DNA from: a virus
Lineage: Duplodnaviria; Heunggongvirae; Uroviricota; Caudoviricetes
Direction: 5' to 3' (one strand)
IMG/VR virus record: IMGVR_UViG_3300001598_000045
Coordinates: 1 to 64,000 of that record
Length of the DNA: 64,000 nt
This document shows positions 1 to 49,919 of the stretch, piece by piece. Within the stretch, counting starts at the first letter, position 1. Each line of letters starts with the position of its first letter. The notes beneath the pieces are model-generated. The model was not told where the DNA came from. It did not search any database and saw only the letters and a program-made list of their open reading frames with translations. A program made the translations under genes and the position numbers.

Positions 1-85
1 TAGTTGATTTATTAGATTATTTTGTTATTACTAAGGCGAAGAGTGAATATGAATGGTTTTATAGAATAGTTAATAGAAAGATATT

Positions 86-577
86 ATGATAGTAAAATTA
101 GAGCCAAATTTAGAGCAGATTGAAAAAGGTTGGAAAACTAAGAAAGATAGGAAAGTTGTATTAGATCATGTACATGGAATTAAGTTAACTGAGGATTTTA
201 ATCATGCATATCTTCAGAATACTAATATATATGTAGCTCTTGGAATATTTAAAGGTTATGAAGATATTAGAGTTCAGCCAAAGTTAGAAGATTATGGATA
301 TGCACTAACTGGAGAAGCAATTAAGAAATATGTCTTATCTAATTTTGGTGATTCAGATCCAACAGAATATATGTTAGAAATTTCAGTTATGCCTTTTGAT
401 TATGAGAAATATTATAAAAATGGCTCATATATAGACTTAGATGGAAATGATACTGGTAATGATTTCTTTGATCAGCCAGATTATAAAGAATTAGAGAAAA
501 AAGCTGAATTACCCGGCTATTGGATCTCATTTACTGTTTTAAAACTTAGACCAGATAATAAAGAAGAAGAAAAATGA
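86..577 (+). CDS. hypothetical protein
   Basis: 163-aa ORF, first of a plus-strand run; no recognisable motif. Confidence 0.5.
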   Translation: MIVKLEPNLEQIEKGWKTKKDRKVVLDHVHGIKLTEDFNHAYLQNTNIYVALGIFKGYEDIRVQPKLEDYGYALTGEAIKKYVLSNFGDSDPTEYMLEISVMPFDYEKYYKNGSYIDLDGNDTGNDFFDQPDYKELEKKAELPGYWISFTVLKLRPDNKEEEK

Positions 578-783
578 CATACGAAGAATTTAAGAAGATT
601 CAATGTGGTGATAGAATAAAAAATATTGCTACAGGAGAGATTGGTGAAGTTAAGGTAGCATCGAGAGGAGAATATTATGTAGAGTATCCTTCTCATCCAG
701 GTCAATTAATTATGTATGATGAATCTGAGTATTATAGTGAAGATGGTAATATTTGGGATTTTATAGAATTAGTAAAAGGATGA
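574..783 (+). CDS. hypothetical small protein
   Basis: 69-aa ORF; ATGA start/stop overlap with flanking genes. Confidence 0.4.
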   Translation: MTYEEFKKIQCGDRIKNIATGEIGEVKVASRGEYYVEYPSHPGQLIMYDESEYYSEDGNIWDFIELVKG

Positions 784-1319
784 ATTATACAGAAGAAGAA
801 TTAGTATCAAGAGGAAAGGAATTATCTTGGTTACTTAGACATGATAAGAACTATAAATTTGATCCTCATGGTTGGCGTAGCGTTAAAGATATCGTTGAGA
901 ATCATGGTTTTACTTCTGAGCTAATAGCGGAAATTGTAAAAACCAATAATAAACAACGATATGAATACAACGCTACTGGAGATATGATACGAGCTAGACA
1001 AGGGCATAGTGTAAATGTTGATGTAGAGCTTAAAGAAATAACTCCACCTGATGTACTCTATCATGGAACATCGAAGGTAAATCTAGAAAATATTAAGAAA
1101 AAAGGATTATTAAAAATGAATCGCTTGCATGTTCACTTATCTGATACAAAAGAAACTGCTGAGAATGTAGGATTAAGGCATGCAAAATCTAGAGTATTTT
1201 TATTAATCCTTGAAGTTGATTGTAAAAAAATGATAAAAGATGGATTTAAATTTTATCAATCAGAGAATGGAGTATATCTTGTTGATAATGTACCCTGGAA
1301 ATATTTAAAAATAATTTAA
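780..1319 (+). CDS. kptA: RNA 2'-phosphotransferase (Tpt1/KptA family)
   Basis: Protein contains ...RARQGHSVNVDVEL...LYHGTSKVNLENIKKKGLLKMNRLHVHLS, matching the Tpt1/KptA conserved blocks. Start taken at the internal ATG at 780, which overlaps the upstream stop. Confidence 0.85.
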   Translation: MNYTEEELVSRGKELSWLLRHDKNYKFDPHGWRSVKDIVENHGFTSELIAEIVKTNNKQRYEYNATGDMIRARQGHSVNVDVELKEITPPDVLYHGTSKVNLENIKKKGLLKMNRLHVHLSDTKETAENVGLRHAKSRVFLLILEVDCKKMIKDGFKFYQSENGVYLVDNVPWKYLKII

Positions 1320-1320
1320 T

Positions 1321-1348
1321 AGAGAGGAGAATTAATATCTTCTCTATT
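1321..1348 (+). terminator. stem-loop terminator after Tpt1
   Basis: Imperfect inverted repeat agagagga-gaattaata-tcttctct, followed by a T-rich tract. Confidence 0.5.
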
Positions 1349-1385
1349 TCCTTTTTATTCCTTATAATTGAAAATAAGATAAATT

Positions 1386-1889
1386 ATGAAAATTGAAGAG
1401 AAAATTAAAAAAGCAGAGGCAAAATTAGCTGCACTTAAAGCTGAAAAAAAGAAGATAGATGATGAAATTTTAAAATCTACTTCTATAATTGACTCTGAAG
1501 AAGCCCAACAAGAATTTTTAAATTATCTAAATGGTAAAGGTTTATTTAAGAAAAAATATGGATCTAATATATTTTTATTATGTAAGCCTGAAGGTTTTGA
1601 AAAAGTTGATTCAGATATTTCAATTTATGGAAGGTGTATTGAAATTATTGATCAAAGAGATGGTTGGGAAGAGTTAGATACTGATCGTGTTAGTACCAAG
1701 ATAAAAATAGAAGACTTTGATATTCTATTTCAATTACAGGCTAAAGAAATAAAAACAGTAAAAGATATTGTTGATGGGTTTTTATCTTTTTATGAACCAA
1801 CTGAAATAAATAGTTTTTCAGATACAGAAGTTTTAAATAGAATAGAAGATCATTTAAAAAGGTTAGATGGAAATCATGAAAACTTATAA
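1386..1889 (+). CDS. hypothetical protein (coiled-coil N-terminus)
   Basis: 167-aa ORF; K/E-rich N-terminus. Confidence 0.5.
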   Translation: MKIEEKIKKAEAKLAALKAEKKKIDDEILKSTSIIDSEEAQQEFLNYLNGKGLFKKKYGSNIFLLCKPEGFEKVDSDISIYGRCIEIIDQRDGWEELDTDRVSTKIKIEDFDILFQLQAKEIKTVKDIVDGFLSFYEPTEINSFSDTEVLNRIEDHLKRLDGNHENL

Positions 1890-2112
1890 ATGTACTAAGA
1901 AATTATATATACGTGGAGTTATATTTGATAATAATGGTAAAGAATCTGTAAAATATAAAATAGAGATTTTTCGGGGTAGCTTAATTGATATAAATTCGGA
2001 AACATTTTGTATTATATCTGATAATTCTTTATTAAATGGAGTTTATATCGATCCAATTGTACTTAAAGAGCAATTTAAAGAGATTAATAAATGCGACAGT
2101 TTATTCAAATAA
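1867..2112 (+). CDS. hypothetical small protein
   Basis: 81-aa ORF overlapping both neighbours. Confidence 0.35.
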   Translation: MEIMKTYKCTKKLYIRGVIFDNNGKESVKYKIEIFRGSLIDINSETFCIISDNSLLNGVYIDPIVLKEQFKEINKCDSLFK

Positions 2113-2720
2113 CAGCAGGTAGAGGTCCAGTTGAATGTGCATCAGTTGTTACTAGAATTGGGGCTGAAATAATTAAAGCCATACAAGATTTAGGAATAAT
2201 AAATGTAGATATAGTAGATTACGAAGAGCATAATGATTTCTCTAATTTATTTATGTCTATGGTCCTTGGCTTTGAATCTCCAGCCCCAGAAATTATAACA
2301 ACTCTAAGAAATCAATGGGAAGGAACAATTAAGTATATAGCGACTAAGAATACATTACGACCAGGACATAAAAGAAAGAATTGGTTTGTTGGTGTTAATT
2401 TCTTTGAGGAGCTTGATTTTCCAGAAGTATCAGAAAAAGATATTAAATATGAAGCTATTAGAAGTAGTGGAAATGGAGGACAAAATGTAAATAAAGTTTC
2501 TTCAGCAATTAGAGCAACTCATATTCCGACTGGTCTTAGTGTATTGTGCGAGGAGTCTAGAGATCAGCCAAGAAATAAAGAAATTGCAAAAGAGAGATTA
2601 TTAAATAGACTTAGAGAAATTAATTTAAGGAAACAGGATAATCAGAAACAACAAATCTGGAATAATCACAATCTCTTAGAGCGTGGTAATCCAAAGAAAA
2701 CAATTAAAGGGGAAGTTTAA
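2091..2720 (+). CDS. ArfB-like peptidyl-tRNA hydrolase (GGQ domain) with an N-terminal extension
   Basis: The C-terminal half has SSGNGGQNVNKVSSAIRATHIPTGLSV (GGQ motif), then a basic tail RLLNRLREINLRKQ as in ArfB/YaeJ. The true start may be an internal Met. Confidence 0.7.
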   Translation: MRQFIQITAGRGPVECASVVTRIGAEIIKAIQDLGIINVDIVDYEEHNDFSNLFMSMVLGFESPAPEIITTLRNQWEGTIKYIATKNTLRPGHKRKNWFVGVNFFEELDFPEVSEKDIKYEAIRSSGNGGQNVNKVSSAIRATHIPTGLSVLCEESRDQPRNKEIAKERLLNRLREINLRKQDNQKQQIWNNHNLLERGNPKKTIKGEV

Positions 2721-2734
2721 TCCCCTTTATTTTT
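2706..2734 (+). terminator. intrinsic terminator
   Basis: aaagggga-agtttaa-tcccctt followed by tatttttt. Confidence 0.7.
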
Positions 2735-2768
2735 TACCGTTTATAAAAAAGTATTTACCTTATATATG
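2735..2768 (+). promoter_or_regulatory. conserved phage promoter motif (plus-strand copy)
   Basis: TACCGTTTATAAAAAAGTATTTACCTTATATATG matches the ACCGYCT...CCTTATATATG consensus seen upstream of many genes. The ATG of ORF 2792 is 24 nt downstream. Confidence 0.6.
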
Positions 2769-2791
2769 AAAAAAAAATAAAATAAAATATT

Positions 2792-3148
2792 ATGAAGATA
2801 CTTATTGGATTATTAATTATTAGTGTATTTATTATTATTAGACTTTTAATGTCATTATCAGATGATAAATACTATGAATCTATGCTAAAGACGTTTAAAG
2901 TAACTGTTAAGTATAAGGTTCATTATAGTAGTTCAGAGTCAAAAGAGTATACTAAAGAATTTATTGTAAGAAATAAGCAAAAAGAAAATATTAGAGTTGA
3001 GACTAGTGTAAGAGCTAGTAGGGCTAATATTCTCTCTATATACTGGACTTACACTGCTAATGTTCCTCATGAAATTAGAATAGAGGAAACTACCGCACCT
3101 ATTGAAATTATTGAATATAGTGCAGAGGAAGTAGTAGAAGAGGCTTAA
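2792..3148 (+). CDS. hypothetical membrane-anchored protein
   Basis: 118 aa with an N-terminal hydrophobic helix. Confidence 0.5.
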   Translation: MKILIGLLIISVFIIIRLLMSLSDDKYYESMLKTFKVTVKYKVHYSSSESKEYTKEFIVRNKQKENIRVETSVRASRANILSIYWTYTANVPHEIRIEETTAPIEIIEYSAEEVVEEA

Positions 3149-3235
3149 TAGAGATATGGTAGAATTTATAATAATAGAAGTAGTTATTATAGTTTTAGTA
3201 AGCTCTATTATAGGATTAAAAAAATTCAGAAAACA

Positions 3236-3652
3236 ATGAAAATATATATTGCAGGACCATTCTTTAGTGAACAAGAAAGAGTTGATTTAAAAAGGATGAT
3301 TCATTATATTCAACAAACTAATCCTGGAGCTGAACTATTTATACCAATGGAGCATTTTGTTCCTGGTGGTGATGCTAGAGATGAACATGGTGAGTATGTA
3401 ATGAATAATGCTGAATGGGGAAGACGGGTATTTGAATTAGACTTAGAAGGTATGAAGGACTGCAATGAATTATATGTTCTTTATTATGGTCTTTATTCAG
3501 ATACTGGAACTGCATGGGAAGTTGGTTATGCTTATGCTAAGAATATACCTATTACATTATTTGTACCATCAGAAGAAGTTAAATTATCTTCCGTGATGAT
3601 ACATAATTCAGCAAAAGTTGTAATAGCAAATAAAATTTTAGAACAAAAATAA
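3236..3652 (+). CDS. nucleoside 2-deoxyribosyltransferase-like protein
   Basis: KIYIAGPFFSEQERV and DTGTAWEVGYAYA blocks are typical of the NDT family. Confidence 0.65.
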   Translation: MKIYIAGPFFSEQERVDLKRMIHYIQQTNPGAELFIPMEHFVPGGDARDEHGEYVMNNAEWGRRVFELDLEGMKDCNELYVLYYGLYSDTGTAWEVGYAYAKNIPITLFVPSEEVKLSSVMIHNSAKVVIANKILEQK

Positions 3653-3694
3653 AAAGGTAGAGAATTAATCTATCTTTTATTTTCCTTATATTTG

Positions 3695-4252
3695 ATGAGA
3701 GAGTATGACTTATTTAGCTTAAGAGATAAATTAAATAATCTGGATATTAATGTAATAAGAGATACTTGGAGAGATGGTGAATTGTGGGCATCTGGTTTAT
3801 CCGATATTTATAAATTATCAGAAGACGATATAACTGAATATGTAGTTGGTGAAAAAATAAAAATAGATAAAGAAATATTTACAATTATTTCATTATATGA
3901 AAATACTAAATTACCTAAAGTAGTAATGTATGATGAGAATATCTCTAATATTTCTTGGAATAAAGCAATGAAACTATATATACCTGATGATTTTAAATAT
4001 ATACCTAGTATTAATGATTTTTTAGAAATAAAAGATAATTTAAAGAAAGTATTCAGTACTATTCCTGAAATAATTAATGAAAGTAATAAGCAAAATGGTG
4101 TATGGTCAAGATCACTATTTACATCAACTTCAAAAGATGAACGATTTGCATATTATTTTAATGTATATACTCAAGAATCTTATTTAGTATTGAAAGAATT
4201 AGAAAGCCCTGTTATGAATACAGTATTTTTTAAAAAGCTAAGAAATATATGA
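3695..4252 (+). CDS. hypothetical protein
   Basis: ATG at 3695 follows CCTTATATTTG directly, so the mRNA would be leaderless. The ORF track lists a TTG start at 3692. Confidence 0.5.
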   Translation: MREYDLFSLRDKLNNLDINVIRDTWRDGELWASGLSDIYKLSEDDITEYVVGEKIKIDKEIFTIISLYENTKLPKVVMYDENISNISWNKAMKLYIPDDFKYIPSINDFLEIKDNLKKVFSTIPEIINESNKQNGVWSRSLFTSTSKDERFAYYFNVYTQESYLVLKELESPVMNTVFFKKLRNI

Positions 4253-4638
4253 AAATTTTAATTATTATATATTTAGTAATAGCATTTATTTTATCTATAT
4301 TTAAAGAAGATCATATATTTAGTACATTTCTTTGGCCCATTACTACTCTTTTAACTCCCATAAGAGAAATAAGAAAACAAAAGAGAGATAAAAAATTTTA
4401 TTCTATAAAACATAATTGTGGAAAATTTATAATTAGATTTGATGAAAATTATGAATCAAATGATTATAGAATTGATATAGGTTCAGGAGGTGATGGCATA
4501 TACATAATTACAGTATCTCCAGAAATATCAAAAGAAGTCCTAACGGATGCTCTTAATGAGTTTGTATCTAGGCCAATGATAGTAAATAAAGAGCAGTATT
4601 ATAATAGCATAATATTAGTACAAAATTTAATAAAATAA
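4249..4638 (+). CDS. hypothetical protein (N-terminal TM helix)
   Basis: 129-aa ORF overlapping the stop of the upstream gene. Confidence 0.5.
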   Translation: MKILIIIYLVIAFILSIFKEDHIFSTFLWPITTLLTPIREIRKQKRDKKFYSIKHNCGKFIIRFDENYESNDYRIDIGSGGDGIYIITVSPEISKEVLTDALNEFVSRPMIVNKEQYYNSIILVQNLIK

Positions 4639-4642
4639 AAAA

Positions 4643-4684
4643 AAAGAGAAAGGAATTAATCCAATCTCTTTATTTTTTTTAGTA
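4643..4684. terminator. bidirectional stem-loop terminator
   Basis: aagagaaagg-aattaat-ccaatctctt flanked by an A-run and a T-run, between convergent genes. Confidence 0.5.
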
Positions 4685-4924
4685 TTTATTTTTTATATCT
4701 TCTAATTGCTTATTCAATCGCAGATAGTTTTCTACATCTTCAGTTATTGATTGTGCTTCATCATTCGCTTCTACAACAACTGAATTTAATAATCTATCTT
4801 TATCTAATAAAGTAGTATAGTCAATATCAACTATGTGATTCCAATATAACCACTCTAAGATTTCTATGAATGAATGTCTATAAATACCGTGTCTATAGTC
4901 ATTCTTTAGATAAATATAATACAT
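4679..4924 (-). CDS. hypothetical protein
   Basis: 81-aa ORF. Confidence 0.45.
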   Translation of the reverse strand: MYYIYLKNDYRHGIYRHSFIEILEWLYWNHIVDIDYTTLLDKDRLLNSVVVEANDEAQSITEDVENYLRLNKQLEDIKNKY

Positions 4925-4927
4925 AAA

Positions 4928-5242
4928 TTAACATTCTTTTTTATCATCGTATAGAATAGTTATCTCTCTCATTGATCTGTGGGAAATCATATTTGATCCT
5001 GGTCTTTTTGGATCTGGAGAATCGAGGGATGTTATTCTATATATATTAACTTTTACATCATGTATCTCTTTATTTACCATAAAGGAATTTATGATTTCAT
5101 CCTCTTTGTAAAAACTTTCATCAGATATCGTAGTGCGCAAGTTCTCTGACTGTCCTGCTCTTTGTGCATTATTAATATCTGTCCAAGCTTGCTCCTCAGA
5201 TGTTCTGCTATTACCGATAAATCTAAATGTTTTAATTTTCAT
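4928..5242 (-). CDS. hypothetical protein
   Basis: 104-aa ORF; promoter motif about 27 nt upstream. Confidence 0.5.
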   Translation of the reverse strand: MKIKTFRFIGNSRTSEEQAWTDINNAQRAGQSENLRTTISDESFYKEDEIINSFMVNKEIHDVKVNIYRITSLDSPDPKRPGSNMISHRSMREITILYDDKKEC

Positions 5243-5263
5243 TTCATTTTGTTTTTAAATTTT

Positions 5264-5294
5264 CAAATATAAGGCTTTAGTGACTTTAGGAACG
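5264..5294 (-). promoter_or_regulatory. conserved phage promoter motif
   Basis: Minus-sense CCGTTCCTAAAGTCACTAAAGCCTTATATTTG. Confidence 0.55.
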
Positions 5295-5316
5295 GAAAAA
5301 AAATAAGCTAGATATA

Positions 5317-5631
5317 TTAGTTTATACCAAGCTCTTTTTCTATTTTTACTAATATTTCTATTAATTCTATTGATCTCCAATTAAGTTCATTATATTCATA
5401 CTTAATCATTGAAGTATAGTCTCCAAATTCAATATCGTAATTTTCTCTATTCCAGCAACAATAAAGCCAATCATTATCTTTTAGATTTATACTAACTTCT
5501 ATATAATCGCAATCTATAAAAGCTAGAATAGTTTTAGAATTTTTAATAATATCAGTAAAATTTTTTAATTTATCCTTATCATTTCTTATGATGTATTTCC
5601 AAGTATATCTGTTATTATTCCTTAGTAACAT
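5317..5631 (-). CDS. hypothetical protein
   Basis: 104-aa ORF. Confidence 0.5.
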   Translation of the reverse strand: MLLRNNNRYTWKYIIRNDKDKLKNFTDIIKNSKTILAFIDCDYIEVSINLKDNDWLYCCWNRENYDIEFGDYTSMIKYEYNELNWRSIELIEILVKIEKELGIN

Positions 5632-5711
5632 ACTGTAATCTTCGACTAAAAGTATTTTTGTTTTTCCTACTATATTTCTAAATAATTGTTTTATAATATA
5701 GTATTTTTGTA

Positions 5712-5978
5712 TTACTTTCTTTTTGAAGGTAATATTTTTTTTATTTTTAAATTTATTTTTGGTATTTTTACATTAAGTATCATTAATGTAGTAATAACGA
5801 GAGCCAGGAACGTTATTATTAAGAAAACATTCTGTGATATTATAAATATGGTGTTTAATACTTCAGATTCCTTAGTATATTCTGTATTTACAACACCCAG
5901 AAATACCATAAGTAATGTACTACAGATCCATAAACCTGCTAATATTGAAGCAACAATATCTATTATTTTATGTTTCAT
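5712..5978 (-). CDS. hypothetical small membrane protein
   Basis: 88 aa with two hydrophobic helices; tail-to-head with the next gene. Preferred over the overlapping plus ORF 5686-6102. Confidence 0.4.
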   Translation of the reverse strand: MKHKIIDIVASILAGLWICSTLLMVFLGVVNTEYTKESEVLNTIFIISQNVFLIITFLALVITTLMILNVKIPKINLKIKKILPSKRK

Positions 5979-6754
5979 TTATGACGTTTTATTTCTGTAT
6001 ATTGTCTATCAGGCTCACAGCACCTTGAATAAACATGTCCAGGTATTCTGTCTAAATAATCTTCTATTAACATTTCTACTTCAGGATTTTCATATGCATT
6101 AAATATTATAATAGAATCATTAGTTAGTCTTGTAATTAATGTTTGTAATATTTTTTCATCCTCTTCATATTCATGAGATGCATCAAATAAGACAAAATCA
6201 TAATTTGTGACAGAACTGCGTAACATCTTTGCCGCATTACCAAAGTATATATTAATCCCGGTAGTATCCCCTAGAGTTTTTTCTAAAAATGTTGCATAAA
6301 ATAAGTTCTTTTCGTAGCAATCATAAGTTTTTATAGATCCTTTAAATTTATTATAAAAAAATCTTGTAGTTGCTCCGAATTTTGTTCCAATCTCTGCTAC
6401 ATAAGATAGTTTTTTGGGAAATAAATAATCTAAATCAGGGATAGGTTCAACACAATCAAAATGAAGATATACACTATCATAATATATATATTTTCTTGAT
6501 ATATCACAAAAATCTGTAAATTCAAATTTACATGAAGTAGGATTAAATGATTTTACTACATGTGGTTTATTTACAAAAAGGCCAGTTACTCCAGTTTCTT
6601 TATGTATAACTATATTATTTTTAGAAAACATTATATAGTTTTCATTTTTACTAAAATATAATTTATCATAACAACTAGCACTTATATTATTTTTAGAGTT
6701 TATGTTATATATTCCATTACTATCTTTTATTCCAAACTCTTCTAAATTTATCAT
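5975..6754 (-). CDS. putative SAM-dependent methyltransferase (class I, FkbM/O-MTase-like)
   Basis: VAEIGTKFGATT resembles glycine-rich MTase motif I, and YDFVLFDASHEY is an acidic post-I-like block. Weak, motif-only call. Confidence 0.4.
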   Translation of the reverse strand: MINLEEFGIKDSNGIYNINSKNNISASCYDKLYFSKNENYIMFSKNNIVIHKETGVTGLFVNKPHVVKSFNPTSCKFEFTDFCDISRKYIYYDSVYLHFDCVEPIPDLDYLFPKKLSYVAEIGTKFGATTRFFYNKFKGSIKTYDCYEKNLFYATFLEKTLGDTTGINIYFGNAAKMLRSSVTNYDFVLFDASHEYEEDEKILQTLITRLTNDSIIIFNAYENPEVEMLIEDYLDRIPGHVYSRCCEPDRQYTEIKRHK

Positions 6755-7104
6755 AAGAATTTTACTTGTTTTATTTCAATTTCTTTATTTTCTAGCATAC
6801 TGAGAACTTTCATATGTATTATCTCTTTTGCTACTTTTTTATCTGGATTAATTAACCCCCAAGATCGATTATATAAAATTTTTATTAAATTTTTTATGGC
6901 ATCTTCTTTTGTTTTATAGAACATGGTTAGACTTCTAGGATGTCTGTATATTCTATCATTCCACAAAATATAATAGGCAATGCCATTATTATCGGTTTTA
7001 GGCGGTTTACAAAATAAATGTGTTACTAAATAAAATAATTGTTCTGTAAATAATACTTTCACAATTATAAGGAAAATAAAAGGTGGATTAAATTTCCACC
7101 TCAT
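6751..7104 (-). CDS. hypothetical protein
   Basis: 117-aa ORF. Confidence 0.45.
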   Translation of the reverse strand: MRWKFNPPFIFLIIVKVLFTEQLFYLVTHLFCKPPKTDNNGIAYYILWNDRIYRHPRSLTMFYKTKEDAIKNLIKILYNRSWGLINPDKKVAKEIIHMKVLSMLENKEIEIKQVKFL

Positions 7105-7513
7105 TTAATATTTTTATTTGTTCAGATGCATAACTTTCTCCTGTTACATCTATAAAATACCAAGAATCTTTTGGTATAATACATTTATACATTACTAAAT
7201 CATCCCTTTTTATTTTAGGGGATTTCATATTTTCTTCTAAAATCGAAGAAATTGAACAAGTATGTATAGCACCAGATTTAATGTAGAAATGCCCTTTATT
7301 ATCCCCACTATATATTTTTTCAGGAACACAATATTTTTGATGTGGTTTTAATACTGTTCCTTCTTTAAAAATATTATCATTTAATTCAGTTTTTACTCTA
7401 TATTTTCTTGGGAAAGTAAATAAACGTGAATCTTTTGTTTTTATAAAAACTTTATAGCAGTAAATATCACACTTTGCTTTTACTGGCTCTTTTGATGTTG
7501 TTAATAAACTCAT
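7088..7513 (-). CDS. hypothetical protein
   Basis: 141-aa ORF. Confidence 0.45.
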   Translation of the reverse strand: MSLLTTSKEPVKAKCDIYCYKVFIKTKDSRLFTFPRKYRVKTELNDNIFKEGTVLKPHQKYCVPEKIYSGDNKGHFYIKSGAIHTCSISSILEENMKSPKIKRDDLVMYKCIIPKDSWYFIDVTGESYASEQIKILNEVEI

Positions 7514-8040
7514 ACTATTATTGCTTCTTTATCGTTTAATACTATAGAACCATCACAAGTTTGAATAACTAATCTTGTTTCGGGCTCTAATAATTCACTA
7601 TTTATATATTTATCCTGTTTATATATTTTATCTATTTGTTCTTTAGTAAAATTATCCCCAAAATCTTCAATAGGAAAAATTATTCTTTTCGGAATATCAA
7701 TACAATGAGTACGTAGTGGTCCAATACTTATTTCATCTAAATCTCCGTATAGAGTAGATTCTAATACTATATCATCCGGGTTTAATGCTATATATTCATC
7801 TAAAATACTAGGAGTTAGTGATTTTAAAATATTAAATATATTAATTCCAGTCAGTGGTGTACTACTTAATAAACTAGGACCAACTAAATCAAATCCATAA
7901 AAATATTCGAAGCATTCACCACCACCTATAATAACAGGCAATTCCATATACTGTCTTGGAATTTTCGACAATGCTATTAATAAATCATTCCATGTAATTT
8001 TTCGTTTCATACATTTATAAGGATTCCAGAAGTATTTCAT
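7510..8040 (-). CDS. hypothetical protein
   Basis: 176-aa ORF. Confidence 0.45.
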   Translation of the reverse strand: MKYFWNPYKCMKRKITWNDLLIALSKIPRQYMELPVIIGGGECFEYFYGFDLVGPSLLSSTPLTGINIFNILKSLTPSILDEYIALNPDDIVLESTLYGDLDEISIGPLRTHCIDIPKRIIFPIEDFGDNFTKEQIDKIYKQDKYINSELLEPETRLVIQTCDGSIVLNDKEAIIV

Positions 8041-8476
8041 TAAATTCTTCCAAGAAGGGATTCTTACCTATATAATTATATAAATTATCAAGAAACTTTA
8101 TAGGTAATGAATTAATCTTATTAGGATTTAGTGGTATCAATGAATTATTTTTATCACTAAATTTGATTGAGTTTTCAGAATAATCAAGGTTAAATGATAA
8201 ATTATATTTGTAGTAAATTCTTTCTAATCTTCGAATAAAAACTCGATTATAATTTAAACTTTCAACCATTAGAATAGTTATGTCATTAATCTTAATTTTA
8301 TTTAGAAGTATATAATTACTAAGAATATAGTAAAGATTGTTATGATAAAATTCAGGAGCTACATATTTTCCTCCCGGTTTAATTTTATCTAATATTTTTT
8401 TTATTAAACTTAAGTAATCTATTACTTTAAGATCTTTCGTTATTTCTAAAAATAATTTAGGATTTTGAGTATCCAT
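8015..8476 (-). CDS. hypothetical protein
   Basis: 153-aa ORF. Confidence 0.45.
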   Translation of the reverse strand: MDTQNPKLFLEITKDLKVIDYLSLIKKILDKIKPGGKYVAPEFYHNNLYYILSNYILLNKIKINDITILMVESLNYNRVFIRRLERIYYKYNLSFNLDYSENSIKFSDKNNSLIPLNPNKINSLPIKFLDNLYNYIGKNPFLEEFNEILLESL

Positions 8477-8507
8477 ATTAAATTAATTTTATCTCAAAAG
8501 AAAAAGT

Positions 8508-17768: not shown

Positions 17769-18606
17769 ATAAGATGCTTTCCAAAACGCTAAGGTTTTGA
17801 ATTTCTACAAAAGATTTGTTTAACTTTATAACTCCAGGTATTTTCTCCGAAAGTTTATCTTTATCTATTCGTAATGGAGTTTTATTAAACATTCTTAAAA
17901 TATACGTATCTGAATTCGTCCTTACAACAAATCCATCTGCATCATAATAGAAGTAGTCCATATGAACTGGAAAATTTCTATCTAATAGTTTTATTACTCT
18001 ATTATTAAACTCCATAGTTGGAGCATTTTTTAGTGAAGTTCTGAATCCTGTTTGAACTCTCTCTTCATTAAGTATATATTTAATAGTAGTTGTCATAAAC
18101 TCTAGACTACTTTTCCAAGCGGCTTCTTCCGTTCTTTCACCGCCACGGACTCCTATCATCGCATAGGATAAGGGATTAAGTTCCCCTGTTGTATCTGAAA
18201 TGTCTATTGGACGAATCAAGTTTTCATCAATATTTTTCCAACTTTCTTCATCTATTTTAAAAACGTTTCTAAATTCCTTTTTCCCCCATCGCCAAATACG
18301 GCCAATAGAAGATAAAGCTCTACCACTTTCGTGAATATCCCCCTGATGATGATCAAATCTTCCCAGGAAAACATCATAAACAATTGCATTCTCAGGTATC
18401 TTAAAGTTAGGATCCCGAGTTCTAATAACTTTTGTCAAAATACTCTTCTCTTTAAAATAAAGTTGTAGAAGAGCAGTAGTGAGTACATCATCCGCATGAC
18501 ATACTCCATCATGTGTAACCAAAAGAACTTCTTTCTCTTGGTCAAAGTTTTCCAATAAATTTCGCATTGTTTTTAATTTAAATTGTTCCAAAATAAAACC
18601 TGGCAA
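17767..18606 (-). CDS. MYG1/UPF0160-like metal-dependent hydrolase
   Basis: THDGVCHADDV and GRFDHHQGD match the HDGxFHxDE and DHH blocks of the MYG1 family. Confidence 0.55.
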   Translation of the reverse strand: MPGFILEQFKLKTMRNLLENFDQEKEVLLVTHDGVCHADDVLTTALLQLYFKEKSILTKVIRTRDPNFKIPENAIVYDVFLGRFDHHQGDIHESGRALSSIGRIWRWGKKEFRNVFKIDEESWKNIDENLIRPIDISDTTGELNPLSYAMIGVRGGERTEEAAWKSSLEFMTTTIKYILNEERVQTGFRTSLKNAPTMEFNNRVIKLLDRNFPVHMDYFYYDADGFVVRTNSDTYILRMFNKTPLRIDKDKLSEKIPGVIKLNKSFVEIQNLSVLESIL

Positions 18607-18650
18607 GATCTAACTTTACCAGGTTCGTTTATTATTCATATATAAGGCTA

Positions 18651-19121
18651 TTAAGACTTTAGAGGCGTATTAATATTTAGCATATTATTAATACTATTTA
18701 CTTGATTTGTATCAAATATTGTTTTTATAGAATCATTATTATTTAATTTTTCTATCTTTTCCTCTAGTCTATTAATTACTTGCTCTAGATTTTTTATTTT
18801 ATCGTCGAGTTTAGTAATTAATTCTATTCTATCTGTAATTATTTTTTCTAATAATGGTGTAGGATTATCAATTACCTTTTCTAATTCTAATTTTACTAAT
18901 TCATTTATCAGGTCTTTTAGCTCAATATCTGAATTATCTTTTAAGTAATCATTTAAACTACTACATATATTTTCTGCTATATTTACTAGTTTACTTAATC
19001 TTTCATCACCATAAATATAACTAGTTGTTGTACTTACTATGTTATTATTATCAAAGTAATCTTTAATTGTACCATAGCTTGTAGTAACTCCAGTATTATT
19101 TATTATACTATTATTCATTGT
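18651..19121 (-). CDS. hypothetical coiled-coil protein
   Basis: Start placed at the internal Met (MNNSIINN) just downstream of the preceding stop. The ORF-track start at 19241 overlaps the phosphatase gene by 130 nt. Confidence 0.45.
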   Translation of the reverse strand, partial: TMNNSIINNTGVTTSYGTIKDYFDNNNIVSTTTSYIYGDERLSKLVNIAENICSSLNDYLKDNSDIELKDLINELVKLELEKVIDNPTPLLEKIITDRIELITKLDDKIKNLEQVINRLEEKIEKLNNNDSIKTIFDTNQVNSINNMLNINTPLKS

Positions 19122-19851
19122 TATCCTCTCCTTGTACTTTTTTATCAATTTTATCAGGTACTTCAAATAACTCCATAATTCCAAGTCCTCTATATATTGT
19201 TTTATTATAGCTACCGGAATATGAGTTATGATAGTGTCCATATATCCATTTATCTACATTTACATTCTCTAAAACAGAATCTAAATATTTTCTGCTTTCT
19301 ACTATTTTCTCATATTGTTCAACTGGAGTGTCATTTAATCTAGTACACATTGGTTGAAATATTAGTGGTGCTTCGTGAGATACTATAATATCTACGGTTT
19401 TTGGTAATTTTTCTATAGGTACTTTTACAATATCCTCATCTTCCCACCAAACTCTTCTATCTTTCCCTTTTGTTGCTAGTTTTTGATTATATTCTAGCCT
19501 CCAAGAAATATCAGTAGAATTTGCACCCCCAATAGTATAAATATCATAACCACATAGATTATATATTTTATTGTCTTCTAAAAATTTAAGTCTTGGATAA
19601 CTAAATTTATCTAGATCTTTAAAAAATGCTGGATCATCGTGGTTACCTCTTATGGCATGAATTACTATATCTGCTTTTTCTAGTCTATTTTCATATTTTT
19701 TATAGACTTGAGGTAGAGCATTATCAAATCCCATGCCAAAATCTCCAACCACGAGAATATCAGCATTAGTTATTTTGTATCTATTAGTTATTGTCCAAAC
19801 TAATTCAGCAAACTCACCATGAACATCACCACACATTATTAATTTTCTCAT
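19111..19851 (-). CDS. calcineurin-like metallophosphoesterase (PPP-like phosphatase)
   Basis: GDVHGEF, GDFGMG and GNHD metal-binding motifs. Confidence 0.7.
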   Translation of the reverse strand: MRKLIMCGDVHGEFAELVWTITNRYKITNADILVVGDFGMGFDNALPQVYKKYENRLEKADIVIHAIRGNHDDPAFFKDLDKFSYPRLKFLEDNKIYNLCGYDIYTIGGANSTDISWRLEYNQKLATKGKDRRVWWEDEDIVKVPIEKLPKTVDIIVSHEAPLIFQPMCTRLNDTPVEQYEKIVESRKYLDSVLENVNVDKWIYGHYHNSYSGSYNKTIYRGLGIMELFEVPDKIDKKVQGEDNNE

Positions 19852-20381
19852 ATCTGTGTAACATCTAAATAGTCAATATTAAAATTAATTGCAGTATCAT
19901 AGTCAGAAGAAGAGAATGATAGAGGATTAATTACTTTTGGACATGCATCACCTATCATTAACATCTTTGATTTTTCTATATTAGTTAAATTATATTTCTG
20001 TACAAATGACTCTAACATCCCAGTATTTGGTTTTCTCCACTGGTTAGATTTATCATTACTAGGACAAAACATATAATCAACTACTATCTGTTCATTAATA
20101 TATTCAGATAATGCTGCTTTTATATAATCAAATTTAGCAGTCATATATTCTACTTTACTTGCTTTTCCATTCTCTATTCCACCTTGATTAGATACAATAA
20201 AAACATATCCACTATTTTTAGTATCTGCCCATTCTTTTAACTCATTCCAAGTTTTAAAGATAGGCGTACAATCAATAATACATTTAGCGAAAGGACCACC
20301 AGAGAGTGTTTTTATTAATGTACCATCAAGATCTATAAATATAATATCTTTATTTTTTAATTTATCATTCATATTTACCAA
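19848..20381 (-). CDS. HAD-IIIA family phosphatase (PNKP-3'-phosphatase/GmhB-like)
   Basis: Motif I FIDLDGTLIKT; motif II-like VSNQGGI. Confidence 0.65.
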   Translation of the reverse strand: MVNMNDKLKNKDIIFIDLDGTLIKTLSGGPFAKCIIDCTPIFKTWNELKEWADTKNSGYVFIVSNQGGIENGKASKVEYMTAKFDYIKAALSEYINEQIVVDYMFCPSNDKSNQWRKPNTGMLESFVQKYNLTNIEKSKMLMIGDACPKVINPLSFSSSDYDTAINFNIDYLDVTQI

Positions 20382-20875
20382 TTTTTAGGTTTAAATCCGT
20401 GTTCTGTATATTTATTTTTTACAACCTTGATAAGACCTGGATTTATATCATTAAGATCAAATTTGTCTCTAATCTCTTTTATAGAGATTTTTGTAATAGG
20501 TGAGATATTATATGATTCAATATCTTTAATAATAATAAATAGTGTACTGATAATTTCTATATTTTCAATCCACCCATCTTCATCACATTCTATATAATTA
20601 TCAAGATCTATAGACCATACTCTTCCATGAGTATTTTCTGGATAAAAATAATCTTGGCTATAATAATCACCATGTCTTCTAATATTATAAACACGTGATA
20701 AATACTTTTCAACCGCGGTATAATTACCCTGTTCTAATACTTTTCTTAAGATCTGTAATTTTTGTAATCTTAATTCTTCGTTTCCTAATTTAACTTCTGG
20801 AATTTTCGCTTCTTTAATTTCATTTTTTGTAAAACTAAATAACTCTTTTAACTTTTCTAAAAAATTTCGTTTCAT
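20375..20875 (-). CDS. hypothetical protein
   Basis: 166-aa ORF. Confidence 0.45.
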   Translation of the reverse strand: MKRNFLEKLKELFSFTKNEIKEAKIPEVKLGNEELRLQKLQILRKVLEQGNYTAVEKYLSRVYNIRRHGDYYSQDYFYPENTHGRVWSIDLDNYIECDEDGWIENIEIISTLFIIIKDIESYNISPITKISIKEIRDKFDLNDINPGLIKVVKNKYTEHGFKPKNW

Positions 20876-21292: not shown

Positions 21293-21324
21293 ATCAATTA
21301 TAAGGATTTTAAGAAAGTATTAGT

Positions 21325-21336
21325 CCCTTATATATG
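21325..21336 (+). promoter_or_regulatory. promoter core element CCCTTATATATG, 2 nt before the ATG
   Basis: Same core as the other copies; near-leaderless arrangement. Confidence 0.5.
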
Positions 21337-21338
21337 TT

Positions 21339-21683
21339 ATGAGAAAAATTTATATAGTAAAAGTAAATAAACCTATATTTTTTCCAGAAACTTTTATTGG
21401 TGGAGCTTTTAGTAAGAAGTTCATAGCTGTACAAAAAAATGAAACTACGATATATTTAATAAATTGTGAAAACTTAGTTAAAATCTCATTATTAAACTTA
21501 TTTAAAAAAGATAATTGGTTAGTAATAGAAGGATCTCCAGAAAAAGTTAATGAGGTTATAAATTATTCATTATTTTCAAAAGAGTTACAGATTTCAGAGA
21601 CTAATTACAATGAGTTATTAGATAGGTGTACTTCAATAGTGAGCAAAAGATTAGAATATTTAAAAGAGGTTATTCGTGATTAA
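21339..21683 (+). CDS. hypothetical protein
   Basis: 114-aa ORF. Confidence 0.5.
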   Translation: MRKIYIVKVNKPIFFPETFIGGAFSKKFIAVQKNETTIYLINCENLVKISLLNLFKKDNWLVIEGSPEKVNEVINYSLFSKELQISETNYNELLDRCTSIVSKRLEYLKEVIRD

Positions 21684-21725
21684 GAAATATTACGTTTAAC
21701 TTCTATTATTTTCCTTATAAATAGA

Positions 21726-22664
21726 ATGATATTAAAAATAGAAATAAATAACTTTAATAGAGAAGAATCAATTATTTTTAATTTTCAAAGAGGAATTAAT
21801 GATCTCGAGTATAGAGAGCGTGATATAGAGGATCTTCTTAGTATCTTAACTATTTTACGAAATCCTACTAATCAATTTTCAGAAAGATTACTAGGAAATC
21901 TTAAAGATGAGATAACTATAGTAACGATAATATTTACTAAAGATGGAAAATCTATTTATGAGTATTCTATATCCTGCTTACCAGAGAAATATTTAATGGA
22001 ATCTTTGATAAAAGATGGCGTCCTAGTTTCATATTGGGATTTTTCGGGGCTTGCTGAATTGAATGGTAATAATATAGAAATATTTGCAAAAGAGATGCCG
22101 ACTATTCCACATATGTTAGTGGGATTACGTGGTTATGATGACCAGCTTAGTGATTTTGGAAAAGCAATATGTGAAGAATTAGTTAATGTATATACTTTAC
22201 CAGATTTTTCCTTATTTATGCTTGAAAACAAACAAATTAATATACAGGATATAGTATATTTTTATAAAAATACTTATCCTAAAATAGAACCATTTAAATA
22301 TTGGAATGATATATTACCAAAACTAGATCTAAATATAAGTGGAATAACTAAACAAGGTGAGATAGTTACTAATGGTAATTTTAACATTAAATTTTCTGAT
22401 ACTGGTTCTGGTGCAATGAGGATGATTTACATAATTCCATTGCTATTTGAGTCTATGAAATCAAATAATGGTATATTTATATATCCAGGTTTTTGTGAAA
22501 ATTTACATATGTTATTGATTAAATTTTTATTAGAAACTTGGTCAAAAATAACAGTAGATAATCCAGAAAAGAATTGTCTCAATCAGTTTATTTCTAAATT
22601 ACCTGCTGAATATGATAAGTATTTTAAACTAAATATATATAGATATAATGATAAGAATAAATGA
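21726..22664 (+). CDS. hypothetical protein
   Basis: 312-aa ORF; CCTTATAAATAGA lies immediately upstream of the ATG. Confidence 0.5.
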   Translation: MILKIEINNFNREESIIFNFQRGINDLEYRERDIEDLLSILTILRNPTNQFSERLLGNLKDEITIVTIIFTKDGKSIYEYSISCLPEKYLMESLIKDGVLVSYWDFSGLAELNGNNIEIFAKEMPTIPHMLVGLRGYDDQLSDFGKAICEELVNVYTLPDFSLFMLENKQINIQDIVYFYKNTYPKIEPFKYWNDILPKLDLNISGITKQGEIVTNGNFNIKFSDTGSGAMRMIYIIPLLFESMKSNNGIFIYPGFCENLHMLLIKFLLETWSKITVDNPEKNCLNQFISKLPAEYDKYFKLNIYRYNDKNK

Positions 22665-24179: not shown

Positions 24180-24352
24180 AAACGTACGGTTTTAATTTGT
24201 TAATATTTAAAAATTTCCTCGAATTAAAATGTTAATATATTTCTCATAAACTTTGTCGTAGGGGCAGGGATATATAATAATCCCTTTCCCCTATTGACCT
24301 ATTGTTTATGGAAAACAGTGTTGTTATTTTCACTGTGACGAAAAATAAAATA

Positions 24353-24441
24353 AGTATATAATAGGATTCGAACCTATGACTTCCTTTAATTATATTCTCC
24401 AACTATAATTAATGGTGTTCTACCGACTGAACTATATATTT
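24353..24441 (-). tRNA. tRNA-like gene with atypical anticodon/variable region (possible intron or pseudo-tRNA)
   Basis: Minus-sense sequence has a canonical D-arm (TA-GTTC-AGTCGGTA-GAAC-A) and T-arm (ATAGG-TTCGAAT-CCTAT). The acceptor stem has 5 bp plus 2 terminal mismatches. 38 nt lie between the D and T arms, containing a 9-bp palindrome ttaattata/tataattaa. No standard 7-nt anticodon loop can be drawn. Confidence 0.45.
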
Positions 24442-24452
24442 CTTATTTCTTC

Positions 24453-24495
24453 ATATATAAGGCTTTAGGCCTTTTATAGACGGTAATTCTATTTT
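24453..24495 (-). promoter_or_regulatory. conserved phage promoter motif driving the tRNA-like gene
   Basis: Minus-sense AGAATTACCGTCTATAAAAGGCCTAAAGCCTTATATATG, about 20 nt before the tRNA-like 5' end. Confidence 0.55.
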
Positions 24496-24554
24496 TATTA
24501 AAATTTACCAAAAATAAATACCGGAACCCTTTTTAGAGTTCCGGTTTGGCATTA

Positions 24555-24695
24555 TTAGACAATGGGTCTTTACTTGCTAGCAGGAGTTTGAGTTTCTCCG
24601 TGCCAAACCTCGATGCCGTCTTTTACGGCACCCATCGTCAGCCATGCCCCGATGGCGGCACCTGCCAATGCAAATGTCGTCTTAATGATTTTACC
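24555..24695 (-). CDS. small hydrophobic protein (46 aa; not in ORF track)
   Basis: MKVFGKIIKTTFALAGAAIGAWLTMGAVKDGIEVWHGETQTPASK; promoter motif at 24765-24800. Confidence 0.3.
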
Positions 24696-24847
24696 AAATA
24701 CTTTCATACTTTCCGTATTTTGGTTAATAAATTTCCGCTGGGATTAAAATAAAGTCACTCAATTGACCTATTTCCCATTCAAATATAAGGCTTTTATCCT
24801 TTTTCAGACGGTATTTTTTTTAAATAAAAAAGGGATAAAATCCCTTT

Positions 24848-26675: not shown

Positions 26676-27133
26676 AGTTCTATTCCTTTTATTTCTTTAA
26701 TTAATTCTTTTTTATTTAATATTATTCTATCTTCTTTTCGTTTCTGTAAGATAACTCTACAGATTGAATAACATTTATCTAAAGCTCTATCTATCCAATA
26801 ATTAAACTTTTTATCATTTTCAATTTTATCTATTTTTCTTTGTTCTATTAATGCTTTTTCAAAATAGTAACTCAAATGATGTTCTCTTGTTGGTGAGCAT
26901 AAATATTCACTCGCTAATTTAAAAGCTCTATCTCCAGCTGATCTATTTTCTAAATATTCTGGATGTTTTTCTGAATATTCATGGCCTAGTAAAAAAGCTT
27001 GGATAAAAAGTGATCTAGAATTTTCATCTAATTTTTTATGTTTAGCTATAGACTTTAGACTTAATTCTAAAAATAATTCACCTGCAATTCTCTCTAAATT
27101 ATTCTGTCTATCCTCTTTATTTTCCATATTCAT
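26672..27133 (-). CDS. hypothetical protein
   Basis: 153-aa ORF. Confidence 0.45.
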   Translation of the reverse strand: MNMENKEDRQNNLERIAGELFLELSLKSIAKHKKLDENSRSLFIQAFLLGHEYSEKHPEYLENRSAGDRAFKLASEYLCSPTREHHLSYYFEKALIEQRKIDKIENDKKFNYWIDRALDKCYSICRVILQKRKEDRIILNKKELIKEIKGIEL

Positions 27134-27166
27134 TTATAAGGAATTTTGGCAGTTATACCCGTAGTT

Positions 27167-44552: not shown

Positions 44553-44615
44553 TCCATATATAAGGCTTTAAAACATTATTAGGCGGTAAAAAATAAAAGG
44601 GTATATTTCAACCCT
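44553..44615 (-). promoter_or_regulatory. terminator hairpin followed by promoter motif (near-identical copy of the element at 33318-33380)
   Basis: Minus-sense AAAGGGTTGAAATATACCCTTTTATTTTTTACCGCCTAATAATGTTTTAAAGCCTTATATATGG. Confidence 0.6.
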
Positions 44616-44954: not shown

Positions 44955-45040
44955 AACTTTATAATTTTATCATTAAAAATAAAATAATGAATAATTCCTT
45001 CTCTCTTAAGGTAATTATATTCATTACATATATAAGGGTT

Positions 45041-45469: not shown

Positions 45470-45599
45470 TTCAATAATAAGGAATATAGGATTAAATATT
45501 AGAAGTAAGTTTTAAGAATTGGATTTTATGTTGAGAAAAAGAAAAATAAAGGGATATAGTCTAAAGTTCTAATTCTCTAGACTACTCCCTTATTATTTT

Positions 45600-49837: not shown

Positions 49838-49919
49838 ATATAATTTTCCATTTATTTCAATGGCGACCAATTAAAATCGGAGTCATTTATTCAAGATATG
49901 TCAAATCTAAATATCTTGA

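Follow-up and report, generated by a model that had tools for sequence, protein, structure and literature searches.

A candidate jumbo-phage promoter core, CCTTATAWWTG, set directly against start codons in an uncultured phage

The stretch of DNA analysed here (the window) comprises 64,000 nt of an uncultured phage, IMG/VR record IMGVR_UViG_3300001598_000045, with a base composition of 28% G+C and ~97 short genes, the minus strand predominating. Recurrent in it is an 11-nt motif, CCTTATAWWTG (position 1 being the first C and position 11 the conserved G), and many of its copies run straight into the start codon of a gene. We consider it probable that this motif is the core of a promoter belonging to a clade of gut and rumen jumbo phages, with transcription starting at or near the AUG. 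Judged by the spacing between promoter and ATG, from which we infer leaderless messages, the mRNAs of these abutting genes would have leaders of 0 to 3 nt.

Results

CCTTATAWWTG is over-represented and placed like a promoter

The core CTTATAWWTG, part of the underlying 11-nt motif, occurs 22 times in the window, compared with 2.85 +/- 1.43 expected from dinucleotide shuffles and a shuffle maximum of 6. Seventeen of the 22 cores are intergenic, in a window of which intergenic DNA makes up 12.6%, and the remainder lie mostly inside over-extended calls of open reading frames (ORFs). When the variants CCTTATT, CTTTATA and TCTTATA are included, there are ~30 intergenic copies, each oriented to the next gene or to a tRNA-like gene or non-coding DNA. 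The two C residues are the most informative positions of the motif, and T10 and G/A11 are the most conserved after CCTTAT; positions 8 and 9 are both W, and at position 9 the base is A in 62-86% of copies.

The surroundings of the motif are equally regular. Terminator-like sites number 23 in positions 1-20000 (4.4 +/- 2.2 expected), and those at 1323-1345, 2705-2729, 7080-7102, 9523-9545 and 17740-17761 each lie just ahead of a motif copy, the motif usually being found directly 3' of a G+C-rich hairpin and T-run. The 46-bp gap between two divergent genes (starts 21292 and 21339) holds two back-to-back copies, a tRNA-like gene is preceded by one copy, and in the relative L166, a 350-kb contig, tRNA clusters are preceded by copies as well. 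No ORF follows the copies at 17712, 24790 and 32197. Because the copies are intergenic, co-oriented, post-terminator, back-to-back at a divergent pair and ahead of a tRNA-like gene, CCTTATAWWTG behaves, by its placement, as a promoter core. The sequence-only reading had seen a promoter core here, and placement bears it out; where that reading took it for a generic core and missed the jumbo-phage RNA polymerase (RNAP), we see a clade-wide, phage-specific promoter. The motif is phage-specific, conserved, AT-rich and over-represented, as jumbo-phage early promoters are, the early timing of the genes being only presumed. It occurs ahead of small orphan genes and is not found in the replication and RNAP block (33.4-44.2 and 45.6-61 kb).

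An upstream box, TTTTTTACCGYCTA (consensus TTACCGYCT), stands in 12 of 30 copies at a fixed 18 nt ahead of the core. It accompanies 2 of 13 abutting promoters versus 10 of 17 others (Fisher P = 0.026), and the abutting promoters tend to have a T-rich stretch right before the core, often the terminator tail itself. Box-bearing and box-less copies may represent two promoter classes. In relatives the core reads CCTTATWWATG, usually after CCTTAAAAG and in many cases with a similar upstream box, and position 14 is a purine in 88% of the relatives' promoters.

Thirteen promoters abut genuine start codons

Five junctions of promoter and ATG had been cited in the sequence-only reading, and all five are present in the sequence as described. 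There are eight further abutting starts, at 21726 (+), 45469 (-), 32704 (-), 27133/27127 (-), 21292 (-), 9501 (-), 8010 (-) and GTG 7062 (-). On the plus strand, the core CCTTATATTTG (3684-3694), with a weak hairpin and T-run just upstream, is followed at gap 0 by ATG 3695, as is CCTTATAATTG (12158-12168) by ATG 12169, which heads a divergent gene pair separated by 80 bp. The core CCTTATATATG at 21326-21336 (+) is separated by tt from ATG 21339 (gap 2; junction CCTTATATATGtt); back-to-back with it in the divergent 46-bp region stands CCTTATAATTG at 21295-21305 (-), leading through at to ATG 21292 (gap 2). The core CCTTATAAATA is used at 21713-21723 (+), where ga separates it from ATG 21726 (gap 2) and the upstream hairpin has -15.5 kcal/mol, and at 62853-62863 (-), where a single t precedes ATG 62851 (gap 1; junction CCTTATAAATAt) and the upstream hairpin has -8.7 kcal/mol.

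The other abutting promoters lie on the minus strand. Two are variants: TCTTATATATG (61068-61078), one t ahead of ATG 61066 of a ClpB/ClpC-like ATPase (gap 1; junction tCTTATATATGt), and CCTTATTATTG (45472-45482), separated by aa from ATG 45469 (gap 2). At 32707-32717, CCTTATATATG and tt precede ATG 32704 of a dual-specificity-phosphatase-like gene (gap 2), and directly upstream is a terminator hairpin gaaagGGCttcgGCCctttc with a T-rich tail (32730-32749, minus strand, -15.7 kcal/mol). The core CCTTATAAATG is found at 27131-27141, where the motif contains an ATG of its own (27133) that shares its frame with another at 27127, and at 8012-8022, where it overlaps the upstream gene's stop codon and is followed by t and ATG 8010 (gap 1). 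At 9504-9514, CCTTATACTTG is followed by aa and ATG 9501 (gap 2), directly behind a terminator-like hairpin AGGTGGGG...CCTCACCT with a T-run (9523-9545, minus strand), and at 7062-7072 the last G of CCTTATAATTG is the first base of the GTG start 7062, whose next in-frame ATG is codon 47, with the terminator-like hairpin GAGGTGGA...TCCACCTT and T-run (7080-7102, minus strand) directly upstream. The abutting start codons are ATG in 12/13 cases and GTG in 1/13. A promoter core thus stands immediately before a genuine start, AUG is preferred, and 0-3 nt leave no space for a Shine-Dalgarno (SD) sequence. The suspicion that ORF-track starts are shifted by this arrangement was justified: the mechanical TTG, GTG or ATG starts 3692, 12166, 62878, 9543, 9921, 8040, 7104 and 28399 fall upstream of or inside a promoter or terminator.

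Several observations speak for the reality of these start codons. For Clp, the alignment with a homologue on L081 (50% identity) begins at residue 1, and the ATG of that homologue is at the corresponding position. In a 20-sequence alignment of the phosphatase-like gene (32201-32704) and 19 homologues, conservation is at least 90% at L4, C6, S8, F12 and D13, all of them ahead of the sole alternative Met (codons 14/15), and therefore the abutting ATG 32704 must be the start. Most other abutting genes have no further in-frame Met for 37-105 codons, and at 28% G+C an open frame of that length would be unlikely unless coding. Mis-called ORFs were considered as a source of the pattern and are ruled out by positive codon scores, conserved N-termini and open frames in a stop-rich genome. 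Ten of the 13 abutting promoters stand directly behind a hairpin and T-run or head a divergent pair, and therefore upstream read-through is an unlikely source of their transcripts.

The same architecture recurs on different genes rather than gene by gene, which fits modular cassettes. The Clp gene is not syntenic in IMG/VR relatives, and a search for loci related to the abutting genes 21726-22664 and 3695-4252 and the DnaB-like helicase gave none. As a separate observation, two unrelated genes have near-identical starts (21339-21356, plus strand; 32687-32704, minus strand), which read CCTTATATATGTT-ATGAGAAAA-(A)TTATAT and encode MRKIY and MRKLY; the promoter cassette may move together with the first few codons.

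The spacing has a sharp peak followed by a void

The start codon of the 13 abutting cases lies -3 to +2 nt after the motif, +2 being commonest. Its first base is at position 9 (27133), 11 (GTG 7062), 12 (3695 and 12169), 13 (62851, 61066 and 8010) or 14 (21339, 21726, 32704, 21292, 9501 and 45469). Across the window the gaps are 0 (2 cases), 1 (3), 2 (6) and 3 (1), with none at 4 to 11, then 12-23 and a few long leaders. Among 34 non-redundant motif copies, 11 have an ATG within 0-2 nt that opens an ORF of at least 60 codons, against a base rate of ~1% (binomial P ~3e-14), and the abutment of promoter core and start codon proposed from the sequence alone goes well beyond chance. A chance origin of the motif, or of its adjacency to ATG, is ruled out by the shuffles and this binomial test, and the ATG is no part of the promoter consensus, the leadered promoters lacking it.

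The relatives have a similar distribution of non-redundant gaps: 1 (2 cases), 2 (10) and 3 (1), singles at 5, 7 and 11, then 14-46. When window and relatives are combined, gap 2 is found in 16 junctions versus 7 for gaps 0-1, so that the start-codon A falls most often on position 14 (16/23 junctions with gap 0-2), 6 nt beyond the CCTTATA block. L166, whose phosphatase homologue is 52% identical to that of the window, has a cassette of terminator-TTTTTTATTTT-CCTTATAWWTG-NN-ATG at 10604, 12840 and 18224 and further gap-2 promoters at 9512 and 15975. Abutting promoters in the window make up 13/~30 of the total, ~40% leaving 0-3 nt for a leader.

Leadered promoters and promoters without ORFs

The sequence-only reading had described other genes as having A/T-only leaders with no AGGAGG-like element. 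In the leadered promoters the ATG lies 12-23 nt after the motif and the intervening sequence is almost pure A/T, in agreement with that description. A core at 1360-1370 (+), just downstream of the terminator 1323-1345, has a 15-nt A/T leader before ATG 1386. Upstream boxes accompany the promoters at 2758-2768 (+; box TTTTTTACCGTTT, 23-nt A/T leader, ATG 2792), 61807-61817 (-; box TTTTTTACCGCCTA, 12-nt leader, ATG 61794), 44555-44565 (-; 20-nt leader, ATG 44534) and 5264-5274 (-; 21-nt leader, ATG 5242), and a further leadered promoter at 9894-9904 (-) has 17 nt before ATG 9876. Two more promoters (45010-45037 and 33305-33332, minus strand) have in common a conserved downstream stretch TATGTAATGAWTATAATTACCT; at both, the ATG at the leaderless position opens a mini-ORF only (20 and 5 codons), and the leaders are 72 and 89 nt long. 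These mini-ORFs or the shared stretch could be a leader peptide or an operator.

Not every promoter leads into an ORF. The promoter at 24452-24462 (-), with an upstream box, stands ahead of a tRNA-like gene (24356-24439, minus strand), which lies 12-13 nt 3' of it; this gene has an Rfam match of 38.7 bits, looks like a tRNA in which additional nucleotides separate the anticodon arm from the T arm, and was missed by ARAGORN, which found no tRNA. The promoter CCTTATTAATG at 17702-17712 (-), with upstream box and terminator 17740-17761, has no ORF downstream and marks a candidate non-coding transcript. Along with those at 24780-24790 and 32187-32197 (-), it is a full promoter (core, upstream box and preceding terminator) without an ORF in an unusually long non-coding gap; such gaps are 16165-16642, 16943-17766 and 24180-24847. 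Rfam at gathering score gave nothing in the gaps holding these promoters, which on their sequence are candidates for phage non-coding RNAs.

Upstream regions show adenine peaks and no Shine-Dalgarno signal

The claim that the phage lacks SD sequences was upheld, pairing being at chance level and k-mer counts no higher than in controls. GGAG, GAGG and AGGA at -18..-4 are found in 3, 1 and 4 of 97 genes, compared with 4/4/4 and 5/2/5 in coding controls, and anti-SD pairing at -3.45 kcal/mol or better in 8.2% of genes, versus 9.4% with shuffled upstream sequence and 19.6% in coding controls. The G fraction is at most 0.21 at every upstream position. The A fraction reaches 0.58 at -14, 0.63 at -13 and 0.55-0.59 from -7 to -3; position -3 is A or G in 78% of genes and -1 is T in 67%. 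Initiation of the Bacteroidota type is marked by both features seen here, no SD enrichment and enrichment of adenine. Strong SD-like sequences (AGGAAGGAG, AAGGAG and AGAGGAGG; -8.8 to -12 kcal/mol) do occur at 15539-15560, 29203-29224 and 34183-34204 (-), ahead of genes 15197-15538, 28939-29202 and 33757-34182, in a number that equals the shuffle expectation but is conspicuous in this otherwise SD-free genome.

The window comes from a jumbo phage with its own RNA polymerase

A megablast of 8 kb against 50,697 phage records gave no nucleotide match. Three minus-strand ORFs encode RNAP-like fragments: a beta-like subunit fragment at 48328-49479 (Pfam RNA_pol_Rpb2_6; PHROG RNAP beta), a beta'-like fragment at 54225-55214 (Pfam RNA_pol_Rpb1_2) and a beta-like fragment of 419 amino acids at 55922-57181 (weak PHROG RNAP-beta match). 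By these Pfam and PHROG matches, the window has the split beta/beta' genes of jumbo-phage early-promoter systems. The nearest annotated relatives in a tblastn search with an RNAP fragment are Staphylococcus jumbo-phage rpoB-like genes (24% identity), and among the 50,697 phage records this search gave no cultured relative with mapped starts; an exact-sequence look-up of the RNAP protein gave no record. Genes on 69 IMG/VR contigs, which reach 400 kb and have 29-39% G+C, match the 419-amino-acid fragment at 61-76% identity; the related phage contigs are 200-400 kb long. With split RNAP genes and relatives on contigs up to 400 kb, the window, on this sequence evidence, is part of an uncultured jumbo phage encoding its own multisubunit RNA polymerase.

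The RNAP genes (46944-55309, minus strand) are in pieces, interspersed with ORFs of homing-endonuclease type at 51847-54003 (-; PHROG homing endonuclease and HNH) and 47390-48316 (-; NUMOD3) and with non-coding gaps at 46944-47389 (446 nt) and 49480-50068 (589 nt). The first residue of the beta' ORF 54225-55214 is already Pfam profile position 109, a pattern suggestive of an exon boundary, intein or intron at the ORF start. Ahead of replication and RNAP genes without the CCTTATA motif, in minus-strand intergenic DNA, are four copies of the word ATATAGTCT (context AAAGATATAGTCTA); it occurs five times in all versus 1.8 expected, at 35612, 47085, 51741 and 55267 (-) and 45554 (+). ATATAGTCT is a possible second promoter class, its statistics being marginal.

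A probable host among the Bacteroidota

Among cellular sequences, the Clp protein has its closest homologues in Bacteroidales metagenome-assembled genomes (39-43% identity), the best 'genome' match being a 376-kb contig that is probably a mis-binned relative. Rumen metagenome scaffolds carry homologues of one window gene, and relatives come from rumen and gut samples. The Clp homologues and these relatives, rather than a CRISPR (clustered regularly interspaced short palindromic repeats) or prophage link, point to a host that is probably a member of the Bacteroidota. A host with low SD usage had been proposed; the absence of an SD signal and the upstream adenine pattern agree with SD-independent Bacteroidota translation. 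L168 (ENA contig k141_161767, 212 kb) has a phosphatase-like homologue without the CCTTATA promoter motif, and its products include a BACON-domain protein, an IF3 homologue, a sigma-70-type factor and an Hsp70/DnaJ pair (1-1170, 19823-20359 and 20370-20582); the BACON domain hints at a Bacteroidota association.

Other genes of the window

The plus-strand genes for an RF-1/GGQ-domain protein (2091-2720) and a Tpt1/KptA RNA 2'-phosphotransferase (753-1319), and the minus-strand genes for a polynucleotide kinase 3'-phosphatase (19848-20381) and a MYG1-type exonuclease (17767-18567), form a set that suggests, from its predicted functions, tRNA or RNA repair or ribosome rescue. A release-factor-domain protein in a gut jumbo phage may have relevance to stop-codon reassignment. 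The gene at 45600-46256 (-) resembles the anti-CBASS protein Acb1 only weakly, its Pfam score of 26.2 bits staying below the cut-off of 27.

Discussion

Proposed transcription and translation from the CCTTATAWWTG promoter

Our preferred account is that CCTTATAWWTG is most likely read by the phage-encoded multisubunit RNA polymerase and would serve small, mostly orphan genes of presumably early type. Many units are compact cassettes of terminator hairpin, T-run, promoter and gene. In the abutting units, transcription would start between the conserved G (position 11) and position 14, likeliest at position 14 (CCTTATA-N6-A+1), giving a true 5'-AUG leaderless mRNA, or alternatively at the conserved G, giving a 1-3-nt leader. 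In each of the RNAP-encoding jumbo phages examined, the early promoters have a phage-specific, highly conserved, AT-rich block, and transcription starts 6 nt 3' of it (PMC7598289, PMC5312081), a block-to-start spacing reported for the virion-RNAP promoters of phiKZ, phiR1-37 and AR9 (PMC5312081, PMC7598289). For translation the abutting mRNAs would rely on the leaderless route, in which a signal ahead of the AUG is not required. The other genes would have Bacteroidota-type leaders, A/U-rich and 12-23 nt long, that show A at -14/-13 and -8 to -3 and lack SD pairing. In Caulobacter each added 5' nucleotide roughly halves leaderless translation, and leaders of 1-10 nt are depleted relative to 0 nt (PMC8459731); a sharp peak at one spacing followed by a void would be explained if short extra 5' leaders inhibited leaderless translation here too. 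Position 14 has in its favour that the start-codon A falls on it most often, that relatives mostly have a purine there and that its distance from CCTTATA equals this 6-nt spacing. We favour position 14, with some flexibility, over G11, a choice that the sequence does not decide.

Several points weigh against this account. The start is placed by promoter-to-ATG spacing, the 5' ends being deduced from it. That spacing varies (-3 to +2), and a single fixed start at position 14 cannot fit all cases; either start-site selection would be flexible or the start would be at the conserved G. T10-G11 forms a perfect pyrimidine(-1)/purine(+1) pair resembling the phiKZ late TATG(+1), which favours a G start with 1-3-nt leaders, poor leaderless substrates in the systems tested, and position 13 is a pyrimidine in only ~32% of promoters. 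AR9, the only AR9-like phage with mapped 5' untranslated regions, has leaders of 26-491 nt, none leaderless (PMC5312081). Orthologues of the phosphatase-like gene (L161, L163) are leadered or inside operons rather than abutting, and the Clp homologue on L081 is not abutting but has a ~20-nt leader. The motif includes a TAnnWWTG string similar to a host -7 box, and an upstream box of -35-like character accompanies many copies, features with which a sigma-dependent reader is compatible. The presence of a virion RNAP, finally, is beyond what a 64-kb window can show.

The strongest competitor, which we nevertheless think unlikely, fixes the start at G11, as in phiKZ late promoters (consensus TATG, G = +1; PMC7598289), so that all abutting genes would have 1-3-nt leaders. 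It draws on the pyrimidine/purine pair formed by T10 and G/A11, the most conserved positions after CCTTAT, and on economy, since one site accommodates gaps 0, 1 and 2, makes GTG 7062 an exact 5'-GUG and turns the shortest leadered gap (12) into a 13-nt leader with room for the A-rich -14..-11 zone. It leaves unexplained both the preference for gap 2 over 0 or 1 (16 vs 7) and the purine preference at position 14, and in Caulobacter, as reportedly in E. coli, leaderless initiation is inhibited by additional 5' nucleotides (PMC8459731).

Improbable to a greater degree is a promoter of host type, read with Bacteroidota sigma-A or a phage sigma factor, in which TATAWWTG would be the -7 box and the start would fall at position 16-17, after the abutting ATGs; the abutting genes would then not be leaderless, their translation depending on read-through transcripts or on other start codons. 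The Bacteroidota sigma-A box is TAnnTTTG at -12 to -5, with 4-5 nt to the start (PMC6847099, PMC9723704). TATAWWTG is like this box, and the -35-like box (TTACCGYCT) stands at a fixed distance in 12/30 promoters; moreover, unrelated viral contigs have a host-like promoter, TTG-N20-TATATTTG after CCT or GCT, ahead of their Clp homologues. The match is nevertheless poor in detail: TAnnTTTG itself is found in only 3/22 cores and is barely enriched intergenically (20/108 copies in 12.6% of sequence), the near-invariant host T-8 and T-7 are replaced by W and A, nothing in the host consensus corresponds to the strongly conserved CCT, and the distance from upstream box to TA is ~21-24 nt versus ~19 in the host. 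The host geometry of box and 4-5-nt distance is not found, and the start would fall 2-5 nt past the A of the 13 start codons. The closest tRNA in a relative has its 5' end at motif position 16, fitting a start there; a scan of the collection for motif plus tRNA, intended to bound the start site, gave mostly unrelated chance matches. A start at 16-17 leaves 16 independent gap-2 junctions, and the void before the leadered gaps, unexplained, and promoters right behind terminators would yield untranslatable messages. A generic sigma-70 consensus is not enriched (124 sites versus 137 expected), and a scan of 40 of the ~97 window proteins gave no Sigma70 domain.

That the motif is not primarily a promoter but an RNA- or DNA-level element (a translation enhancer, a processing site or a shuffled recombination cassette), its closeness to ATG reflecting common ancestry of cassettes, is hardly credible: genes 21339 and 32704 do share their first 9 coding nt (ATGAGAAAA) and similar next codons, the downstream stretch GTAATGAWTATAATTACCT is common to two promoters, and the terminator-promoter cassettes recall the promoter-stem-loop cassettes of T4-type phages, but the same core stands ahead of tRNA genes and non-coding regions, upstream of genes in sense orientation only and at distances of 12-89 nt from many other starts, and the gap dinucleotides differ (tt, ga, at, aa, ta, ag), arguing for independent junctions.

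A bolder form of our preferred account, in which a clade-wide bipartite promoter is read by the phages' own RNAP with the start exactly on the A of AUG, many early messages are truly leaderless, in a host whose ribosomes disregard SD sequences and seldom meet leaderless mRNAs, and the box defines two programmes, seems to us rather doubtful. Box plus leader and boxless plus leaderless would then be distinct temporal or translational programmes, and phage translation factors might help; there is an RF-1-domain protein in the window and an IF3 homologue on the motif-less L168.

Significance and comparison with known systems

No new principle is involved, since leaderless mRNAs, translation without SD and promoters specific to a phage are all familiar. 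For annotation, the work provides a promoter model and corrected start codons for an uncultured clade of 200-400-kb phages, in which automatic callers put TTG, GTG or upstream ATG starts inside terminator and promoter. It also makes a prediction, that early messages will have a 5'-AUG or a 1-3-nt leader, in a share ~8x that of sequenced Bacteroidota hosts; the AR9 study had none. If true, the transcription machinery of a jumbo phage is coupled to SD-independent translation, and the terminator-promoter-ATG units could become compact, portable expression cassettes for Bacteroidota-type systems.

The closest parallel is with the early promoters of jumbo-phage virion RNAPs. In common are the split beta/beta' genes, a conserved AT-rich block of ~10 nt ahead of small orphan genes and a preferred start-codon A 6 nt after CCTTATA, which is their block-to-start spacing (PMC5312081, PMC7598289). 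The sequence itself is unrelated, and the extra upstream box TTACCGYCT, present in many copies here, is not described for those promoters in the reviews consulted. AR9 leaders are 26-491 nt long, whereas ~40% of the promoters here leave 0-3 nt (reader and timing being presumed in this phage). Like the phiKZ late promoter of the non-virion RNAP (T-3 A T G+1), our motif mostly ends in (T/A)ATG, with an invariant T and then G or A; in phiKZ nothing else is conserved upstream, whereas here a strong CCTTAT block precedes the ATG-like end. With Bacteroidota sigma-A promoters (-33 TTTG / -7 TAnnTTTG) it shares the TA-nn-WWTG string, an upstream element and the Bacteroidales-rich habitats of its relatives; it differs in that T-8/T-7 are unconserved, CCT is conserved instead, the spacer is longer and the start would come after the abutting ATGs.

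On the side of translation, F. johnsoniae has A enriched at -14..-11, -6 and -3 (PMC6847099). Its SD-independent initiation resembles that of the window in the absence of SD and in the upstream A peaks; the differences are that we deal with a phage whose host is only inferred, and that T at -1 (67% in the phage) is not a described feature there. Leaderless mRNAs amount to 5.5% in F. psychrophilum (PMC9723704), 3.7% of leaders are <10 nt in B. thetaiotaomicron (PMC7366714) and 13% are <=10 nt in F. johnsoniae (PMC6847099). Bacteroidota hosts thus have few leaderless mRNAs in comparison with 13/~30 abutting promoters here, a figure for promoter spacing and not for mapped 5' ends. Such a share is unusual compared with both Bacteroidota hosts and AR9, leaderless phage messages as such being well known. 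The abutting genes resemble the leaderless mRNAs of lambda cI, mycobacteria, Deinococcus, Caulobacter and haloarchaea in having no room for a leader and no SD, and the excess of 0-nt over 1-10-nt leaders in Caulobacter (PMC8459731) is like the sharp spacing peak and short-leader void that we observe here.

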